This document shows, one piece after another, positions 32,838 through 48,488 of a DNA stretch of 64,000 bases (its first letter is position 1; each line of letters starts with the position of its first letter). The DNA lies in the NCBI GenBank assembly GCA_040220235.1, contig JAVJTO010000077.1. One strand, written 5' to 3'. Under the pieces are notes generated by a model that saw only the letters and a program-made list of their open reading frames with translations, was not told the DNA's origin and did no database searches. A program made the translations under genes and the position numbers. The DNA comes from Coleofasciculus sp. B1-GNL1-01. Lineage in GTDB: Bacteria > Cyanobacteriota > Cyanobacteriia > Cyanobacteriales > Coleofasciculaceae.

Positions 32838-34704
32838 GTAAGGATTCAGGTCGGTGTTTAGCTTGTTAATCAGCCTGGGGGCGCTCGCCGTGATCAAATA
32901 ACTTTGAAAGGGACTCAAGTCATATCGGCGAGTGCGCCCAGGCTACTTTTCCCACTCCTCACATCGCGACAAAAGGATTGACCTTGGCAGTAGAGCCAAG
33001 TAATTCATCAACCTGTAATTGACTATGTAAGTCATTCAAGGAATTGGTTCGGGTAAAAGGGAACAAGTCGATTGAACTAACTCGACCTCAGCCCTTAAGG
33101 CTTGTTGGAAAAACGTAAGAACCGAGCGTCCCTGTCGTCTACAAGTCTGTATGACGGTGAGTAAGTCAGCCGTTTGTTGAAATCGTGCCATCGAACGTGA
33201 CCCGCCACTGACTTTACGCTTGGTCACGGCTAAACGTAAAGAACGTTCAGCCAGGTTATTGTCCGGTGGGATCTGAGGATGCTCAAGAAAATACCACCAT
33301 TGCTGTGCTTTGTCTCGCAGAGAACGTAGCAATTTCCCCGCCTCATAGCCCGCCTGTCTTATCCACTGCTGTATACTTAGCTCTACTCGTAGCTTAAACC
33401 CAGCCGCCCAAGTGCGATAGGCACTATCATCTTTTGTTTGTCGCCATTTTTTGTGTTGGGCAAAAGCTTCTTCAATCAACTCAATGAATGCTTCTCCCAA
33501 AGCCGGGTTGTTACCGTGATTCAACTTGACAACTTGTTTAAAGTGACGCAACAGATGGGCTAGACATTTTTGCTGAGCTTGAGCGCTGTAGCCGTTATAA
33601 ACGCTGTAATCATCCGTGCTGAGTACACCTTCAAAGCTTTCTCCTAGCTGAGTTACTAATTCGGCCCGTGAGCGAGTGTCACCCGGATGAAACACGCAGA
33701 ACGACTGACCCGTTGTTACCCACAGCCATTCTTTAAGTCCAAGTACGGGCCAGGGGGATTCATCTACATGTACGGCGGGTTGTTTCTTGACCCATTCCCG
33801 TAATTGTTCAACGCTGTTCTTGATAGCATCCGCCATTCTCGCGTTGGTCGCCACCAGAGTTCCAACTCCAATCTCCACTCCACCCAGTTCCTTGAGCAGT
33901 TCTTGCTGCTTTTCATATGAAAGATGACCATAATTTCCTAACCACACCAAAAAGGCTTGTAGTCTCACACTCAAGTCAAGACCTGGTACAATATCTTCTG
34001 GCCAGCAAGCCGTTTGGGTTTGACCACACCTGGCACAAGTACAACTGTGTCGCTGGTATTCTACTACCTCTATTGGACGCTCTACCAATTGGGCTACTTG
34101 TTGCCTCTGTATAGCTACTGGGGTTTCGATAAATTCTACACTGCCACAATCAATACATTTTTGAGGCTTAAGGATTTCATATCGGTCTACTCGTTTAAAG
34201 CCTTTACGGGTCTTTCCCTGATGACCCGGTTGCCCTCCTGGTTTCCTTTTGGGTTGGGACTTGTCTTTGGCATCGCTTTTCGGTTTTTCCGGTTTTTTGA
34301 GCAGGTCAGTTGAGGGGGGCTTTGAGGAGGTTGTACTGTCTTTTTGAAGGCTGGCTTTGAGGCGAACGACTTCTTGCTTTAACTGCTCTATTACTAGTTG
34401 CTGCTGCACGACTATCTTCACCAGTTCTGAGCTGGGCAATTGTGGCAGACGCTCTAAATCTATTTCTCTTTCTGGTTTCATGGCAGCAGCACAACTGTTG
34501 ACTTAATTACAGCACATTTTTGGGTGCTTTGATTCACTGATTTTGATCACTCCACCCTTAGGGCGGGTAGTGAGCCGAAAGTCGGGGTGGAGCCTCCCGT
34601 CAACGAGAGCTAACACTCTTTGGGCTGTATTGGGTAAGACTCTGGCTCCACCCCTAATCATCAAGGCAGCCATTTCACCCACAAGGGCCGACCTGAATCC
34701 TTAC
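32838..34704 (-). mobile_element. IS66-family insertion sequence, single-ORF (ISBst12-like) type
   Basis: Perfect 17-bp TIRs GTAAGGATTCAGGTCGG (32838-32854) and CCGACCTGAATCCTTAC (34688-34704) flank a transposase. Confidence 0.92.
33036..34481 (-). CDS. IS66-family transposase
   Basis: SSKPPS.D, KPGGQPGHQG, zinc finger, HVDES, QKCLAHLLR and PDNNLAERSLR motifs. Confidence 0.95.
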   Translation of the reverse strand: MKPEREIDLERLPQLPSSELVKIVVQQQLVIEQLKQEVVRLKASLQKDSTTSSKPPSTDLLKKPEKPKSDAKDKSQPKRKPGGQPGHQGKTRKGFKRVDRYEILKPQKCIDCGSVEFIETPVAIQRQQVAQLVERPIEVVEYQRHSCTCARCGQTQTACWPEDIVPGLDLSVRLQAFLVWLGNYGHLSYEKQQELLKELGGVEIGVGTLVATNARMADAIKNSVEQLREWVKKQPAVHVDESPWPVLGLKEWLWVTTGQSFCVFHPGDTRSRAELVTQLGESFEGVLSTDDYSVYNGYSAQAQQKCLAHLLRHFKQVVKLNHGNNPALGEAFIELIEEAFAQHKKWRQTKDDSAYRTWAAGFKLRVELSIQQWIRQAGYEAGKLLRSLRDKAQQWWYFLEHPQIPPDNNLAERSLRLAVTKRKVSGGSRSMARFQQTADLLTVIQTCRRQGRSVLTFFQQALRAEVELVQSTCSLLPEPIP

Positions 34705-36770: not shown

Positions 36771-36875
36771 TCAAGGTATTGCAGAGTTTTAAGCTTAAGA
36801 TGACACAAATGCGCGTCGGGGCTACCCTACATTTTTTCACCTAATGACAAAGGACAAATGACAAAGGACTAATGA

Positions 36876-39800
36876 CTAATAACTAACAAGACTATTTTCG
36901 CGGATAATATCCTTCAACGACCCCACAAACTCTTGTTCCAAATAAGGCTTCGTGAAATACCCACTCGCCCCCAACTGCATCGCTAACCAGCGATGTTTTT
37001 GACTGCTGCGAGAGGTTAACATGGCAACGGGAACGCTGGACAATTGCGGATCTTGACGCCGTTGACTGAGAAACTCAAACCCATTCATATTCGGCATCTC
37101 AATATCACAAACCACTAACTGCACCGATGCACTTTGCTGCAATTGCTCGATCGCCTCTCGACCATCCCGCGCTTGTAACACCCGAAAACCTGCCCGTTCC
37201 AGGGTTAGCGCTAGGGTTTGTCGCAACGCCACCGCATCATCGACAATCAAAATTGTCGGTACTTGCATCATTTTGTTAAGAGTAGTTGTATCCCCTGAAC
37301 CCATCGCCGTTTCGTCTGAAGCCGCTTTCGGTACAGGCGTCGCCGTTGGCGTCATTGCTCCATGGGCAAATTCCAACAGCGCAATCCCATCAATCACCGG
37401 AATCACACTCCCATCCCCCAAAATCGTACAGCCGTAGGTATAACTAGGGGGAGAAATCGCCGCCCCAAAAGGTTTAATCACCAATTCTTGTTCTGTAACC
37501 AGACGCTCCACTTCCAGAGCAAATATCTGCTGATCCTGACGCAGTACCAACAGGGGTAATTGCCATGTCTCTGGTGCAGCAACTGAACTTAAGGCTTGAC
37601 TGGTAAGGCTTTCCGGTAAGGGGCGCTGATACTCCAACAGCTCCCCTAATCGATACGTCGGGACTAATTCTCCCCGCCAATGGAGAAACCGTTGCGCCCC
37701 GGATTTTTTCACTTGGTTGGCTTTGGGAATGATAATTTCTTCAATACTGTCCGAGGGTAACGCTAACACGGTTGTCCCGATGAAACAGACCAATAATTTG
37801 GCGATGGTAAGGGTTAACGGTAGACGTAATGTAAACGTCGTCCCGCCTCCTGGTGTCGAGGTTACCGAAATTTTACCTTTGAGCGATCGCAACTGAGTCC
37901 GCACCACATCTAACCCCACCCCTCGTCCCGATAACTCGCTGACTTGCTGGGCGGTGGAAAATCCTGGCTCAAAGATAAATCCCCACAAACGCGCCTCTGA
38001 GATTGTCGCTAATTGGTCACGGGAGACTAATCCCACCTCGACCGCCCGACGCCCAATTCGCTCGGCATTTAACCCTTGACCATCATCCCGGACTTCAATA
38101 ATTGTTTGACTTCCCTTGTGATACGCGCGAATCTCCATTTGTCCCGATTCCGGTTTTCCCCGTTGATGCCGAATCTCAGCAGACTCAATTCCATGGTCAA
38201 AGGCATTTCGGAGTAAATGGAGTAACGGATCATAGAGTTTTTCTAACACCGCTTTATCCACCAAAACCCCTGTTCCGGTTAGTTTCAAATTCACCCGTTT
38301 GTGATACGTGTTAGACAGTTCTCGTAATATCCGGGGAAACCGATTCAAGACTTCCCCAATCGGTAACATCCGCGCCCACATCAGCTCATCCCGCAAGTGG
38401 TTGAGCATTTGACGCTGCTGTTCCGTGGTTTGATCGGATTTCTTGGCAAATAGGGCGATATCATCAACCGCTTCTTCAAGCTGCACCATCTCTTCCAGAA
38501 TCCCTTGGATTTGGGAATAGAGAGCGCCGTAGCTATCCATTTCCAAGGAGTCAAAATCCGCTAATGTTTTCAGCGTTCCATCTGGAGCGCGATCCGAGTT
38601 TTGAAATCCCAGCGATCGCCCATTACCGCTTGGGGAAATTTGACGAGCCTCCGCACCCGCCATCATCCCATAGCTGTACCGTTCTGGTGCAACCAGCATC
38701 TTATCCGATAAATTTTGCAATTTATTCACAATCTGCCCAAATCGCCCAAATCGATCCAGCAAGGCTCGCACAGAACCCTGTAATTGCTGATTCTGGAGGG
38801 ATAACCCATTGCGGTTAATTGCTAATTCCCCCACCAAGTTATTCATTCGTTCCAGTCGATCTAAATCCACCCGCACGGATAGAGTCGGCGTAGGGGCGGG
38901 TGAACGAGGAGGAGTCGATGCAACGGGATTGTTGCTGGTTAGCTGATCAGTTAAAGACGCCGTGAGATTACGCTGATCCAATGGATTGGAAACCAACGAA
39001 TTCCCTTGAAACAGAGTTAATTGCGACGCCTCTTCCAGGGCGGGAAGTTGATCAAAAACTTGCTCAATCGATTGAATCGCAACATCCAGGTTGATCGGTT
39101 CAGTCGGAACTAATGCAGAGGGTTCAGGTACGACATCCGCTTCGATGTCGGTGACGGTTTCGGGAGTAACCTGGAGGTATTCCTCCGTTTGGGCGAATAT
39201 AGAACTCTCCTCGTTAACCTCTTGTGTCTCTAAAATCTCCTCACCTTCAGACGTACCAAAAATATCGTCTAACGAGGGAATGGATGAGGGTGATTCTGCT
39301 GTGGCTGGCAGGTTATACGGTTCAGTCTCTTGAGAAAACAAATCGGCGAGTAAAGGAAGCGTTTCTGGTGACGCCGCGATCGCATCTTCCTCTGTATAGG
39401 CTTCAATTGGTTGTCCTGCGGACTCTTCCTCGTCTATCGAAACCTCAGTTAATGGCAATCCCCATTGCCAATCACTCGTTTCCCACTCCTGAGAAACCCT
39501 TCGACTTCGCTCAGGGTTAACCGTTGCTGGGGTGGGAGACTCAGCCAGGGAAACTAAAGCCTCAGACGGATTTCCTCCCGTTGTTGGTTCACCAGAGAGA
39601 ACCGCTTGACGGCTGAGTTCAAAATCAGCTAGAGCTAATTGCGTAACCTCTATAGCCCTGTCAGGGTGAACCTCCAGCGCCTGTTGTGCCGTTTGGGCGA
39701 TCGCGCCAAATCCGGGCAAGTTTAAGAACTCAGCAAATCCGGCAAACACTTCAATTTGGGCGCGTAATTCTCCCGCCACTTCATAAGCCTGAGGATTCGC

Positions 39801-40322
39801 TACCACGGTAGCAAGACGTTCCAACCCTTCAGCGACATCGACTTCAAAAATCGACACCGCCATATTGATCCCCAATTCAGCGGAACTGGGCATATAACTA
39901 TCTGCCTGAGTCAGAGCATCTCCCAATCGTGCCTCAATTTGGTCAAAAATGGGAGTCCCCGTGGATATAGCCGCATCCGCATCAAAGGAACCGGTGGTAA
40001 TTTGCGATTTCAGCGGCACACTCAGACAGTCATAAGCTTGTAGCAGTTTATTTTCTAGCTCAATGTCAATATCAACGGTATCACTATACAGTGCCTTAAA
40101 GATATTTTCCAAGCGGTGAGCTAGAGTCGCGATCGCCTCTAATTCAACACTGGCTGCGCCCCCTTTTAACGAGTGAGCCGCTCGCATTAATTCGTGAACT
40201 TTGGCAGTGCTGCGCTCATCTCTGAGATTTAATAACCCTGTTTCTAAGGTCTGTAAAAGTTCTGGTGCCTCGGCAATAAAAAACTGATAGGCTTGGTCAC
40301 GAATATCGGGATTAATTGCCAT
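36876..40322 (-). CDS. cheA: Hybrid CheA-like histidine kinase (Hpt-HATPase-CheW-REC)
   Basis: MRAAHSLKG, HLLRNAFDHGIE, SGRGVGLDVV and a C-terminal receiver domain. Confidence 0.96.
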   Translation of the reverse strand: MAINPDIRDQAYQFFIAEAPELLQTLETGLLNLRDERSTAKVHELMRAAHSLKGGAASVELEAIATLAHRLENIFKALYSDTVDIDIELENKLLQAYDCLSVPLKSQITTGSFDADAAISTGTPIFDQIEARLGDALTQADSYMPSSAELGINMAVSIFEVDVAEGLERLATVVANPQAYEVAGELRAQIEVFAGFAEFLNLPGFGAIAQTAQQALEVHPDRAIEVTQLALADFELSRQAVLSGEPTTGGNPSEALVSLAESPTPATVNPERSRRVSQEWETSDWQWGLPLTEVSIDEEESAGQPIEAYTEEDAIAASPETLPLLADLFSQETEPYNLPATAESPSSIPSLDDIFGTSEGEEILETQEVNEESSIFAQTEEYLQVTPETVTDIEADVVPEPSALVPTEPINLDVAIQSIEQVFDQLPALEEASQLTLFQGNSLVSNPLDQRNLTASLTDQLTSNNPVASTPPRSPAPTPTLSVRVDLDRLERMNNLVGELAINRNGLSLQNQQLQGSVRALLDRFGRFGQIVNKLQNLSDKMLVAPERYSYGMMAGAEARQISPSGNGRSLGFQNSDRAPDGTLKTLADFDSLEMDSYGALYSQIQGILEEMVQLEEAVDDIALFAKKSDQTTEQQRQMLNHLRDELMWARMLPIGEVLNRFPRILRELSNTYHKRVNLKLTGTGVLVDKAVLEKLYDPLLHLLRNAFDHGIESAEIRHQRGKPESGQMEIRAYHKGSQTIIEVRDDGQGLNAERIGRRAVEVGLVSRDQLATISEARLWGFIFEPGFSTAQQVSELSGRGVGLDVVRTQLRSLKGKISVTSTPGGGTTFTLRLPLTLTIAKLLVCFIGTTVLALPSDSIEEIIIPKANQVKKSGAQRFLHWRGELVPTYRLGELLEYQRPLPESLTSQALSSVAAPETWQLPLLVLRQDQQIFALEVERLVTEQELVIKPFGAAISPPSYTYGCTILGDGSVIPVIDGIALLEFAHGAMTPTATPVPKAASDETAMGSGDTTTLNKMMQVPTILIVDDAVALRQTLALTLERAGFRVLQARDGREAIEQLQQSASVQLVVCDIEMPNMNGFEFLSQRRQDPQLSSVPVAMLTSRSSQKHRWLAMQLGASGYFTKPYLEQEFVGSLKDIIRENSLVSY

Positions 40323-40325
40323 ATT

Positions 40326-40395
40326 TTCGTCCTTTGTCCTTGGTCATTAGTCCTTGGTCATTAGTCTTTGGTCATTCGTCCTTTGTGCTTGGTCA
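40326..40395. repeat. STRR heptamer array x10 (TTNGTCM on +)
   Basis: Ten units ending 3 nt before the cheA ATG on the minus strand. Confidence 0.92.
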
Positions 40396-40431
40396 CAGTT
40401 TCTTGATTGAGTGGAAACTGCTATCCTTAGC

Positions 40432-40561
40432 TAAGCTGTTCGGCATTTAAACCATAATGTCAAGAATTGCGAAATCCTTGCCGTAGTAGTGCGAGCATCT
40501 TGCTCGCTACATTGAGCATCTTGCTCGCTACCCATTCCCAATTTAAATGCGTGACAGCTTA
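40432..40561. mobile_element. MITE family 2, copy C (internal palindrome duplicated)
   Basis: Same TIRs as 5579-5681, with GAGCATCTTGCTCGCTAC present twice. Confidence 0.85.
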
Positions 40562-40591
40562 GAGCATAGTTTTATTAGCGAGGGTGTAAAG

Positions 40592-40987
40592 ATGTCCAGT
40601 AAGAGATTCCAAGATTTACAGGTTTACCAGTTGGCAGAACGATTAGCTAATGAAATCTGGACAATTGTGAACGACTGGAATGGTTTTACTAGAGATACCG
40701 TAGGTAAACAGATTGTTCGTTCAGCGGATAGCATTGGTGCCAACATAGCAGAGGGAGTAGGGCGAGGAAGTTTTCAAGACAATCGGCGATTTATTCGGAT
40801 CGCTAGAGGCTCTTTGAATGAAACTCAACACTGGCTAAGACAAGCGTACATTCGCCATCTATTAACTGATGAACAAGTAGATACACTTAAATCAATCATT
40901 GATGAACTCGCCCCAAAACTCAATGCCTACCTAAAATCAATTGGTGATCACCCTAGTTCCAATCAACAAATGACAAATGACAAATGA
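40592..40987 (+). CDS. Four-helix-bundle protein (23S rRNA IVP / Avd-like family)
   Basis: FQDLQVYQ, QIVRSADSIGANIAEG.GR and RFIRIARGSLNET motifs. The ATG at 40547 lies inside a MITE, so 40592 is preferred. Confidence 0.92.
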   Translation: MSSKRFQDLQVYQLAERLANEIWTIVNDWNGFTRDTVGKQIVRSADSIGANIAEGVGRGSFQDNRRFIRIARGSLNETQHWLRQAYIRHLLTDEQVDTLKSIIDELAPKLNAYLKSIGDHPSSNQQMTNDK

Positions 40988-41033
40988 CGAATGACGAATG
41001 ACGAATGACGAATGACGAATGACGAATGACTAA
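40971..41033. repeat. STRR heptamer array x9 (TGACNAA on +)
   Basis: tgacaaa x2, tgacgaa x6, tgactaa. It contains the stop codons of both convergent genes. Confidence 0.92.
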
Positions 41034-43897
41034 TTCAATTTAAACTGACCCACTTCTGCCTGTAACGCTTGCGCCACTTGTCGGAGTTGTTCAAATGAGT
41101 ACGATACGTCACTAGCTCCTGTGGATGTTTGAGCCGCAATATTTGCCACTTTTGTCATTGTTTCCGTCACCGATTCAGAGGCTCGTGTCTGAATTAATGT
41201 GGCTTCGGTAATCGCTTCAACCAGGTCACTAATCTTGTTGGATACAGAGGTAATCTTGTTCAGAGAAGCACGAGTTTCATCCACGAGTTTTGTACCCATA
41301 ACCACCTGTTCTGTCCCAGCTTCCATTGCGGTTACCACCTCGTTGGTTTCGGCTTGAATTGCCGCCACCAGCTTTTCAATTTCGCTAGTCGCATCAGCAG
41401 ACTGTTGAGCCAGCGATCGCACTTCGTCAGCAACCACCGCAAACCCTCGTCCTTCTTCCCCGGCGCGGGCTGCCTCAATGGAGGCGTTGAGCGCCAGCAA
41501 GTTGGTTTGGGCGGCAAAGGTGCTAATCAGGTTAACAACCGTGGAAATCTTTTGTGACGATTCACCCAAGTGTTTGACTTTTTTCGCCGTTTCTGCTACC
41601 GTTTCGCGAATGGCGAGAATCCCGTCTACAGTACGGTTCATCGCCTGGTCTCCTTCTTGTACCATCTGACCCGCTTCTTGCACCGCCGTTAACGCTTGTT
41701 CGGCGTTTGCGGCAACCATTCGCACCGACTGAGCCATTTCCTGGGCGCGGTCAAGGGCGACGGAAATTTCTTCGGCTTGGTGCAGCGCTTCTTCGGCTAG
41801 GGATTGTACCGCCACTTCATTACTGCTCGTGGTATCCGCCACTTGACCCGCCGCTGCTTGCACCTGAGTAACAATTTTCCGCAGGTTAGCAACTGTGGCA
41901 TTATAAGAGTCTGCCACTGTACCGATTTCATCTTCGGTGACTCGTGCGCGAATGGTTAGGTCACCTTTACTAATCGGGTCTACCTCCTTCAGCAGTTCTA
42001 AAGCTCGCTGTTGCAACCCTTCTTTCAGTAGCCGCTGTTCTTCCGCCAGGTTTCGGGTTTGGTCAAGTAGGGTGAGTCGGTCAAGGGACAATCGCATCTG
42101 ATCGGCTAAGCGTTGGAGAAAATCAATGTCCCCAGGTTGCCATTCGTGGGACTTTTGGCAGTGGTGAACGCTAAGTAAGGCAAAGGGTTGACCTTGCGAC
42201 ATCAGTAAAACATCCAGGGTAGACTTAACTTCCAGATGTTCCATAAACTTCAACTGTTCAGGTGCTAACCCGGCGGTGGCAACATTCGTAATTGCCAAAA
42301 TCCCGTCATCACTGTGAGTCGCTAGCTGTTTTGGTGACAAGGGGGGATATTTGATATTGCTATTGAACGCATGAAACTGACCCCCAGTAACGGATTCAGC
42401 CGCAACCTCACCACTACCATCGGGGTTAAGGCGATAGACAATCACCCGGTCAGCTTTATAGATTTTGCGAGCATTGATCACGGCAATGTCGAAAATATCT
42501 TGAATCGCTTGGGCGTCAAAGGAACGGACACTGGTAATCTCTGCCAGCAAGTTTGCCTTTTCTGCTGCCAAGGTTTGTTCCTGCACCAGGGTTCCAATCT
42601 GTTGAGCCATGTCGTTGATGTTTTCACCCAAGACAGCCATTTCGTCTTCCCCAGCCACGTCTAGACGAGTATCCAAGTTTCCCTGACCAATTTTGGTGAC
42701 CGCATCGGCTGCACTCACAATCGGACGAGTGGCACGGTTGGCAATGGCGGCGGCTACCGCTGATACGAGTAAAGCGGTGAGTGCTGTACCACTGGCTAGG
42801 GCAAGAAGTAACCGTCGCTGCGGTTCAAACGCAATCTTGGTGGGTGTGGCAACCATCGCCGTCCAGGGTAGGTCTTGCACCCCTTCCAATTGTTGTTCAG
42901 GAGCGTAGGCTAACAACTCTTGAGCACTTTGAACCGTATCTGTTGTCACTGTACTTCCTGATTTCCCTGCGGTTTTCAATTGCTCAAAATTCACAAACAC
43001 GTCTGAGGCACTCTTACCCTGCACATCTGGCTGGTTCGATACGAAAATTTCAGCACCGCCCTCAGATAAGTCAAGTAAATAGTATTCGTCACCGCCAAAC
43101 CCGAAGTTGGAAATCAGGTCATCGAGGGCTTCTACAGGCATACGAGATCGGATCACGCCAATGGTTTTCCCGGTGGCATCTTTTACGGGTGCAGCCGTGT
43201 GAATCACAAATTTGCCACTGGATTCAGAGATTGTGGGGTTATCGATATAGGGTCCATCCAGTTTGAGGGCAGCTTGAATGTATTCGCGATCGCTGTGATT
43301 CGGTAGAGGATCTCCCTGAGACTGTACAATTACATTGCCCTGGAGATCAAACACAGCAATGCTGTCATAGATTTTGTAGAAATCGACGTAGTTGTCGAGA
43401 GTGGCTTGTTTTTGAGCCAGAGTTGTTGAATCAACCAGCTCCGGATCAGTGAGAATTTGCAGACTCGCCAGAATCTGAATATCCCCGTACCGTTCCCGCA
43501 TGAAACGAACCACCTTATCTTCAATACCTTCAGCACGGGCGATTTTCGCGTTGCCAATTTCTTGAGCAATTGCTCGGTCAGCAAAATAGTAGGCAGTGAT
43601 TCCGGTTACCAGTACAGGAAGCGTACCAATAATGATTGCTAATGCTGTGGCTTTATTTCGCAGATTCAGCCGTTGCCACCAAGAGGTTGATGACTGTGAT
43701 TTGGGAATGGTTTGAGTCTTTGCCTTGTATCCTTCCCCATCAAATTCTAGTTGTTTGAAAGCCTTTGGGGTTTGAGTTGAGAGACTGTTATCAGAAAGGG
43801 GATAATCATTGAGTACTGAACCATTATCATTGGATGTCAGATTGGAGATAGCACCGTTATTATTTGTGGAGTTTGTATTGGGTGATGTTTGAGTCAT
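41030..43897 (-). CDS. Methyl-accepting chemotaxis protein (Cache-HAMP-GAF-MCP, PixJ-like architecture)
   Basis: Two TMs, a periplasmic Cache-like domain, HAMP, GAF and [31 protein letters not shown]. Confidence 0.95.
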
Positions 43898-44160
43898 GAT
43901 AGAAACCTCGTCGTTGAACATCAATAGGGTACGAGAGATACTACTCAACTATTCCGCAAGTCAAAAGAAAGCCTTGCGTTTGGTTAAGCAATACCAGATA
44001 GTGCTATGAAATTAAGCGAAATTTTTGGGGTTATATTGATCAGCCGTCGTCAATTGGCTGATTTTGAGAAATGTTTGATAGACGCAACTCTTGGTTCAAA
44101 GGATCTAGCTAACTTGACACCTCACCAGTTTGACAAATGACAAATGACAAATGACAAAAT

Positions 44161-44739: not shown

Positions 44740-44883
44740 GAACTGTTTTGTTTGTAGTAGGCACTTTAGTACCTTCTGCTTGACTTACCAGCACTAAAGT
44801 GCTGACTACGAACTGTTTTGTTTGTAGTAGGCACTTTAGTGCCTTATCCTTGACTTATTAGCACTAAAGTGCTGACTACGAAC
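44740..44883. repeat. Two tandem 70-bp REP-like units
   Basis: Each unit has GTAGTAGGCACTTTAGT...GCACTAAAGTGCTGACTAC inverted arms. Confidence 0.85.
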
Positions 44884-44891
44884 CGTTTTAA

Positions 44892-47635: not shown

Positions 47636-48256
47636 CTAGCCTTCGCTTAAATTCATTTGACCTCGAAATCCTGTAACAATGCGACTACCATCTTTAAGGA
47701 TATGAATCTCCATTTGATCAGAAGCCCAGGTGATTTGGTCTTTTAATGCGGGATTAAATACCCGAACGCGCTGATTTCGAGAGGAGACGGGTGAATCGGG
47801 AGAATTAATAGCCAAGGATTCAACAAAGGGACCATCGACTAAAATATCAAGTTGTCCTAATAACTCTTGTGCGCCTGGAGGAGCCTCGGGTGATTGCAGT
47901 TCCCCTAACGTAAATCCACTAAAGGACATAACATTTAACCCCGCCGCTTTGAGTTTCTTGGCTAACTGCGCTAGGGCTGGTGCTTGCCAAAAGGGTTCTC
48001 CCCCAGAAAAAGTTACGCCTTGATTATGAGGATTGGACAAAATTTTATCCGCTAATTTATCAACAGCAATTAACTGGTTAATTTCAAAAGACCAGGAGGC
48101 TGGATTGAAACAGCTTGCACATTCTCGTTGACACCCTTGCACCCAAACAACAGCGCGACAGCCAGGACCGTTTACTTCTGACTCGTCAACGTATCCCATG
48201 ATATTTAGATATCCAGGAGGAATGTCATTGGTCATTTGTCCTTTGTTATTTGTCAT
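47636..48256 (-). CDS. Radical SAM protein, NrdG-like activase family
   Basis: VNGPGCR..WVQGCQRECASCFN, GVTFSGGEP and DILVDG motifs. The N-terminus is made of STRR units. Confidence 0.9.
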   Translation of the reverse strand: MTNNKGQMTNDIPPGYLNIMGYVDESEVNGPGCRAVVWVQGCQRECASCFNPASWSFEINQLIAVDKLADKILSNPHNQGVTFSGGEPFWQAPALAQLAKKLKAAGLNVMSFSGFTLGELQSPEAPPGAQELLGQLDILVDGPFVESLAINSPDSPVSSRNQRVRVFNPALKDQITWASDQMEIHILKDGSRIVTGFRGQMNLSEG

Positions 48257-48488
48257 CGATCATTTGTCCTTTGTCACAATGCTTTAACTCAATTGGGGCG
48301 GGTTTAGTTACATCTGGGTGAGGTTAGAAACGATAATAGTGAAACCCGCCCCTACACCCTTCAAAACCATGCCCGACTAGCGAAGCGAAGAGTCAACAAT
48401 CAAAACGTAGTCAGGGCGGGTTTTGAACAAAACCTTATCATTAACAGCGAGACGAAAGTCCCTAAACCCGCCCCTACTCAAAACTTTT

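Follow-up and report, generated by a model that had tools for sequence, protein, structure and literature searches.

A heptamer-flanked four-helix-bundle gene in a cyanobacterial taxis operon: very probably one copy of a widespread cassette related to rRNA intervening sequences

What is a four-helix-bundle gene doing inside a taxis operon whose genes are read on the other strand, and why is it enclosed by two mutually inverted arrays of a 7-base unit? The question arises from a 64,000-nucleotide stretch of contig JAVJTO010000077.1 of Coleofasciculus sp. B1-GNL1-01, here called the window, in which the gene separates an MCP gene from cheA. An earlier note on the sequence had proposed a candidate mRNA intervening-sequence cassette. 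The features concerned are the following:

33036-34481: IS66-family transposase, intact-looking, 6 kb from the cassette
36876-40322, minus strand: cheA-like hybrid kinase (Hpt, dimerisation, HATPase, CheW and receiver domains), the downstream host gene
40326-40395: cheA-side arm, 10 heptamer units, TTNGTCM as read on the plus strand
40431-40562: nested MITE-like element, 132 bp, with 21-nt terminal inverted repeats and internal GTAG-type palindromes
40592-40987, plus strand: four-helix-bundle gene, 131 aa, intact (TIGR02436 / PF05635)
40971-41033: MCP-side arm, 9 TGACNAA units, the inverse of the cheA-side arm
41030-43948, minus strand: MCP (dCache, HAMP, GAF and MCP signal domains), the upstream host gene

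Profile matches in the window give the operon order PatA-type regulator, CheY, CheW, MCP, insert, CheA, CheW, the identity of the first gene being our reading of a DUF4388 domain combined with a receiver. The layout described in the earlier note was confirmed. Coordinates and profiles place the plus-strand gene between the minus-strand MCP and cheA, and all nine units of the right array fit TGACNAA; the left array does consist of ten units at 40326-40395, but only eight of them match TTNGTCM exactly. The arms, announced as imperfectly complementary over some 60-70 nt and about 575 nt apart, give a best inverted match (40333-40395 with 40971-41033) of 63 nt at 79% complementarity and 575 nt apart. 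The MCP stop codon TAG (41030-41032) does lie inside the outermost unit of the MCP-side arm, in register, and 3 nt do separate the outer edge of the cheA-side arm from the cheA ATG. Read on the operon strand, this arm contains an AAGGA word resembling a Shine-Dalgarno sequence, which may serve cheA.

Three features were absent from that description. The inner units of the MCP-side arm are at the same time the final codons of the gene (QMTNDK-stop). The nested element, with 205-303 BLAST hits per position in the source genome, is a secondary insertion in the cassette leader and stands outside the cassette design. The source genome contains 1,564 period-7 arrays, 7 being its commonest repeat period, with the arm units among the top families. 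Further single arrays of the arm family lie at 36841-36886 (cheA stop), 44131-44158 (before the MCP start) and 48223-48276 (where a radical-SAM gene begins; array-encoded residues open the longest ORF of this gene). The four-helix gene has a GC content of 40.7% and a GC3 of 0.33, the corresponding values of its two neighbours being 49% and 0.47. An Rfam search over 40200-41200 returned only a chance snoRNA match (E 0.18) and no credible family, and the IS66 transposase has no visible link to the cassette.

The protein scores 99.1 bits against TIGR02436 (cut-off 24) and 105 bits against PF05635 (cut-off 33.8). Its structure model (pLDDT 88.9) predicts helices at residues 10-27, 31-57, 61-87 and 93-117, and the top structural match of this model is 2GSC (Xcc0516; TM 0.83/0.93, rmsd 1.0), followed by BT_0352 and then by Avd of the DGRs (4DWL; TM 0.71/0.85, E 0.012, 17% identity). 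The solved relatives 2GSC and 2RLD contain five chains each, and the accessible parts of two papers describe the likeness of PF05635 proteins to Avd and a basic pentamer (PMC10053308, PMC6182149). The cassette protein resembles Avd in its four-helix fold and in belonging to a mostly basic group of proteins, but it is much closer to Xcc0516. It is itself weakly basic (pI 8.1 versus a subfamily median of 9.5, with pI above 9 in 68 of 88 homologs). Purifying selection has acted on it in the long term, as dN to relatives is 0.12-0.19 and dS 0.7-4.2 (the L053 pair was left out, being out of frame); an in-frame stop was seen in 9 of 97 copies, some of which are possibly frame artefacts. The protein matches only PF05635 / TIGR02436-type profiles and has no transposase or recombinase domain. 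Neither a recombinase nor a nuclease or reverse transcriptase was seen to accompany the element. A reverse transcriptase of the kind that adjoins Avd in DGRs is absent from 9 window proteins and from the 68 neighbours examined, which comprise 67 of 106 cluster representatives and one further protein.

Given 1,564 period-7 arrays in the source genome, enclosure by chance had to be controlled for. We gathered 110 homolog loci, 30 from relatives plus the best 80 of 555 in GTDB, and kept the 97 that had at least 50% identity and enough flank. Inverted flanks were found in 91 of these 97 loci, and 6 failed. When the same geometry was shifted by 0.9-1.2 kb the counts were 0/79, 0/95, 2/92 and 2/89, and direct orientation gave 7/97. 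Period-7 arrays occurred on both sides in 75 loci, and periods of 5, 6, 8 or 9 in none of the 97. Among the best 80 of 555, the hosts at 59-80% identity include cyanobacteria, Acidobacteria, Planctomycetes, Chloroflexi, Verrucomicrobia and deltaproteobacteria. Other PF05635 genes from five genomes passed the inverted-flank test at 13 of 14 loci; in the source genome, three of five intact PF05635 genes are without arms. Among its 5,941 ORFs, 30 lie between nearest arrays that are mutually inverted, 22 of them with outward and 6 with inward geometry, and the gene at 40592-40987 is one of the six. Thus 40326-41033 is very probably one copy of a widespread heptamer-flanked four-helix-bundle cassette, a relative of the rRNA intervening sequences and not one of them.

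Since the units of different loci are related, the raw inverted score is a weak control (501 of 1,164 foreign pairs reached a score of 12, and in 48 of 97 loci the own pair scored above every one of the 12 partners), and unit spectra were used instead. At 63 measurable loci the left-right unit similarity was 0.81 for a locus's own arms and 0.20 for foreign arms. Across sites, unit similarity correlated with protein identity (rho 0.26, 4 of 2000 shuffles), also within cyanobacteria (21 sites, rho 0.36, 2 of 2000 shuffles); outside cyanobacteria the correlation was absent (14 sites, rho 0.06). One Dolichospermum genome harbours two cassettes with unrelated units (similarity 0.02), and a pair of cassettes that are 83% identical and sit at different sites has its unit in common. 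These comparisons, in which kin are not independent, are suggestive of a unit that belongs to its cassette. The unit consensus is K-T-N-G-T-Y-M, with a frame chosen to maximise T2 and G4, so that these two columns are partly circular; within a locus position 3 varies most (constancy 0.73 versus 0.88-0.99), as would be expected of repeated binding sites with one free position. The arm unit at 40326-41033 is that of the host's dominant repeat family. TTNGTCM triplets are abundant in all eight congeners (343-2,254 overlapping matches), and a moderately close relative of the protein in only one of the eight, which indicates that the arrays persist or spread without the protein. Across 61 genomes no clean association of TTNGTCM arrays with the subfamily of the cassette protein was observed.

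The 97 loci represent 58 different neighbour pairs, for the most part tight junctions within operons. Pfam matches of 68 neighbours indicate, in our own reading, that the conserved operon pairs nifS-nifU, nuoC-nuoD, kdpA-kdpB, dndD-dndE, livG-livF and manC-manB have been hit; the nifS-nifU case is L049, and in L016 the cassette follows a cas7-type (DevR) gene. Flanking genes are co-directional in 86 of the 95 classified loci, compared to 64% of ORF pairs in the source genome. According to a crude ORF caller, the gene is in sense orientation between such genes in 62 loci and antisense in 24, with 9 arranged otherwise and 2 unclassified (n=97). The first arm begins at most 10 nt from the host stop codon in 61 of 73 cases. 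This stop is in register with the unit, at its TAG position, in 44 of 66 loci (16 of 30 sites), and it is TAG in 45 of 66, versus 27% of ORFs in the source genome. The bias may reflect an element that targets unit-like stops, or else arrays that, supplying stops and starts in all frames, rescue insertions at gene ends.

The MCP-cheA junction was compared in eight congeners, whose cheA is 92-98% identical. In six of them the gene is missing, and a junction of 80-124 nt contains arm remnants and a different palindromic filler. These six junctions (L113-L118) have a short GTAG-type palindrome where the cassette core would be; a similar, doubled palindrome lies at 44740-44889 of the window, between cheY and cheW. 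A seventh congener (G008, locus L119) has kept about 34 nt of the 3' end of the gene in the same orientation, so residence at the junction is old and no fresh jump. Past this remnant L119 has a short stretch that reads like a copy of the opening codons of cheA, followed by other repeats, which suggests a complex deletion. For the eighth (G005) the contig begins inside the arm, the MCP side was not found and the case is undecidable. The gene-less congener alleles thus look, from their sequence, like deletions or replacements and not like pristine pre-insertion sites. No clean pair of filled and empty sites with a target duplication was found, the gene-less alleles holding arm remnants or other fillers. 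Since most congeners do without the insert, it is probably neutral for the taxis operon.

Among 21 more distant best-match junctions, some of which may belong to paralogous operons, one carries a sense-oriented cassette with another unit and one (L129) is a bare 11-nt junction, too distant to align. An inverted match, with varied units, was seen at 15 of the other 19. In a further set of 20 junctions, three that were picked for an adjacent match carry antisense genes or a fragment, and inverted ends are kept in 7 of the other 17. The four-helix genes at MCP-cheA junctions do not form one clade (AU p 5e-4 and 1e-5 for two junction classes, on a 44-row subset with a quick tree, the groups being set by site after the tree was seen; 51 of 91 branches of this tree are open), and L163 has a different four-helix subfamily at this junction. 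The MCP-cheA site has been occupied repeatedly.

The orientation of the insert can differ between alleles of a single site. A Nostoc junction provides one case, with the same insert and its leader present in both orientations (dS 0.17). Among the best 30 of 61 genomes this junction had 19 antisense and 3 sense alleles and 8 without a protein match, of which 5 hold a hairpin of another unit, 2 have collapsed to a few units and 1 is a short remnant; the host tree of these alleles, built on 810 bases, is weak. A second inverted pair, at dndD-dndE, has a dS of 0.01. Both orientations being present at single sites, antisense placement is likely to result from inversion and not from regulatory design; for the gene in the window, recombination between the arms offers the best account of its antisense state. 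Antisense placement, to which the earlier note had drawn attention, is ordinary, as 24 of the 97 loci share it. Two of the outcomes that the note had named as counting against its proposal did not occur: homologs are flanked by inverted arrays far more often than ordinary genes (91/97 versus 6 of 5,941 ORFs), and the gene is not fixed at the junction in relatives, being missing in six of eight congeners. Both agree with its notion of a cassette that is bounded by repeats and needs no transposase from within. In place of the empty alleles that it had asked for, gene-less alleles were found, with the signs of deletion or replacement described above.

How, then, should the arms be understood? In an mRNA intervening sequence the arms would pair in the transcript, loop out the gene, join stop and start and be cut by RNase III, and the element would spread via the excised RNA with the protein as an Avd-like RNA chaperone. 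The closest precedent is the intervening sequence in helix 45 of the Coxiella burnetii 23S rRNA, for which the accessible part of the report describes an S23p ORF, terminal inverted repeats, a 28-bp stem that is nearly perfect, tandem heptamers and an RNase III cut at the first repeat (PMC4990558). The protein fold resembles that of Avd, a partner of DGR RNA in the portion of the work available to us (PMC6182149), and co-directional junctions are strongly preferred. In addition, the arms are predicted to pair, as the earlier note had anticipated: the minus-strand fold of 40300-41060 has a z of -4.95 versus 20 shuffles (part of this signal being added by the nested hairpin element), the arm duplex has -49.5 kcal/mol on the operon strand, and the mean pairing probability of the arms is 0.67 in a 1.1 kb context. 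Several properties nevertheless speak against arms that are maintained as an mRNA duplex, and on this point the earlier proposal was not supported. The predicted duplex loses no stability on the opposite strand (-57.8 kcal/mol), and its longest unbroken helix is 10 bp, compared with the 28-bp stem in Coxiella. No G-U excess was detected on the operon strand over 95 arm pairs (117 G-U versus 149 A-C), the classes being 77 versus 94 in sense loci, 21 versus 14 on the gene strand of antisense loci and 26 versus 34 in gene-less hairpins; in the window all 13 of 13 arm mismatches are non-wobble. Unit order is unmatched between the arms (0.836 versus 0.843 when shuffled, 51 heterogeneous arm pairs), the closeness of stop and start follows from insertion into a short junction (as short as the 11 nt of L129), and reverse transcriptase is absent among the neighbours scanned. 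Slippery arrays can pair in any register, so that these tests weaken, rather than refute, the idea of folding or incidental cleavage. Taken together they favour arms that would be read by a protein at the DNA level, and the arms may still fold incidentally or be cut by RNase III; we regard the mRNA intervening sequence as unlikely.

Another explanation places the repeats, and not the gene, at the origin: the gene would be a horizontally acquired passenger, and enclosure a by-product of host arrays that arise at stops and starts. The source genome arrays are indeed polarised, with the outer edge at a stop or start codon in 613 of 1,564 and the inner edge in 137, and a like polarity is described for Xanthomonas and Nostoc (PMC4692102) and for Beggiatoaceae (PMC4679880), as far as the parts consulted of these papers go. 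The abundance of arrays in congeners without the gene, and the gene-less inverted matches at many MCP-cheA junctions, would also fit. However, ordinary genes in the source genome show the opposite geometry (22 outward versus 6 inward), and the gene has the same arms in Acidobacteria, Planctomycetes, Chloroflexi and deltaproteobacteria, where arrays are absent 0.9-1.2 kb away. Within one genome, separate cassettes differ in their units, and the unit goes with the protein. By the flank controls, the ORF geometry and the unit data, host-driven build-up appears largely refuted, and we consider it quite improbable. Still less can be said for a domesticated invertible switch, in which flipping of the core would toggle antisense transcription or polarity and thereby tune cheA expression and taxis. 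Such a switch would be consistent with both orientations at single sites, one pair being nearly identical, and with the repeated occupation of MCP-cheA junctions. Against it stand the 58 unrelated neighbour pairs, the gene's absence in six of eight congeners and its frequent breakage or deletion at the Nostoc site. No invertase lies nearby, and a promoter scan of the gene strand over 40250-41150, which is a weak test, gave no promoter-like site. This makes a switch very improbable indeed.

We therefore return to the cassette. With moderate confidence we propose that it is a selfish element without a transposase, whose arms would serve at the DNA level as sites for recognition by the protein and for recombination. 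Such a cassette would spread into tight stop-to-start junctions of operons. The protein is predicted to assemble, as Xcc0516 and Avd do, into a basic pentamer. It would recognise the unit of its own cassette and join the arms, which would thus be putative DNA binding sites and at the same time substrates for host recombination; the inserting enzyme would be encoded outside the cassette. Recombination between the arms could flip the core, giving the antisense state of the window, or delete it, so that gene-less hairpins and loose arrays remain. A 7-nt unit, whose length is not divisible by 3, shifts the frame from one repeat to the next, so that stop and start codons are available in all frames of an arm, and insertions at gene ends may thereby be tolerated.

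The rRNA intervening sequences are, in our best reading, the closest known kin of the cassette. As described in the accessible part of the Coxiella report, they have in common with it the protein family, the position inside a terminal inverted repeat, heptamers beside the ORF, and a patchy distribution with signs of horizontal transfer and decay. Unlike them, the cassette at 40326-41033 lies between the protein genes MCP and cheA and not in rRNA, its arms are long and degenerate (79% complementary), and its core occurs in either orientation. REP/RAYT elements and MITEs likewise combine one coding copy with inverted-repeat flanks and many gene-less derivatives. The cassette differs from these in that its protein has no transposase domain, its ends are tandem heptamer arrays and not palindromes, and no target duplication was found. 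As tandem 7-mers with many intergenic copies, the repeats of the source genome fall into the heptamer tandem-repeat class, whose cyanobacterial members are known as STRRs. Heptamer repeats have been reported from filamentous cyanobacteria, Xanthomonas and Beggiatoaceae, and the accessible portions of these reports name no protein or mechanism and yielded no link to a "helix bundle" or "S23" (PMC4692102, PMC4679880). The same portions describe further likenesses: a period of 7, intergenic location, polarity towards stop and start codons, some convergent pairs and suspected horizontal spread.

In the literature searched, with subscription papers and supplements outside the scope, no description of this cassette class outside rRNA was found. 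Two orphans are tied together by the cassette: a large family of proteins whose function is unknown, and the surplus 7-base repeats, for which the parts seen of the published accounts give no mechanism (PMC4692102, PMC4679880). As a tentative extension, possible rather than probable, four-helix-bundle cassettes may be a widespread mobile class without transposases, in which a ring-shaped protein would read its own heptamers and drive insertion, inversion and exchange at stop-start junctions together with host enzymes; the rRNA intervening sequences would then be those copies that inserted into rRNA, and the 7-base repeats of cyanobacteria and other bacteria their gene-less descendants. If this is true, each protein lineage should favour its own heptamer, the rRNA intervening sequences belong to a broader family of elements that target junctions, and a route of mobility that does without a transposase is indicated.

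Some individual loci deserve mention. A well-supported small clade of the subfamily (L007, L019, L020 and L021) has little or no arms, and is possibly a domesticated or decayed branch. In the source genome, a PF05635 gene at C49:75168-75470 lies between short inverted repeats that are G-rich/C-rich and not heptameric in appearance. A decayed four-helix gene lies at C96:75994-76176 of the same genome, between an FMN_dh-family gene and a peptidase S49 gene, and in the congener G004 the same site is occupied by an intact copy of 53% identity (L022). Finally, L004, L013, L061, L071, L101, L103 and L211 have a second complete hairpin after the stop codon of the four-helix gene, and L004 and L013 have one ahead of its start as well, as if the ends of the four-helix gene had been targeted anew.
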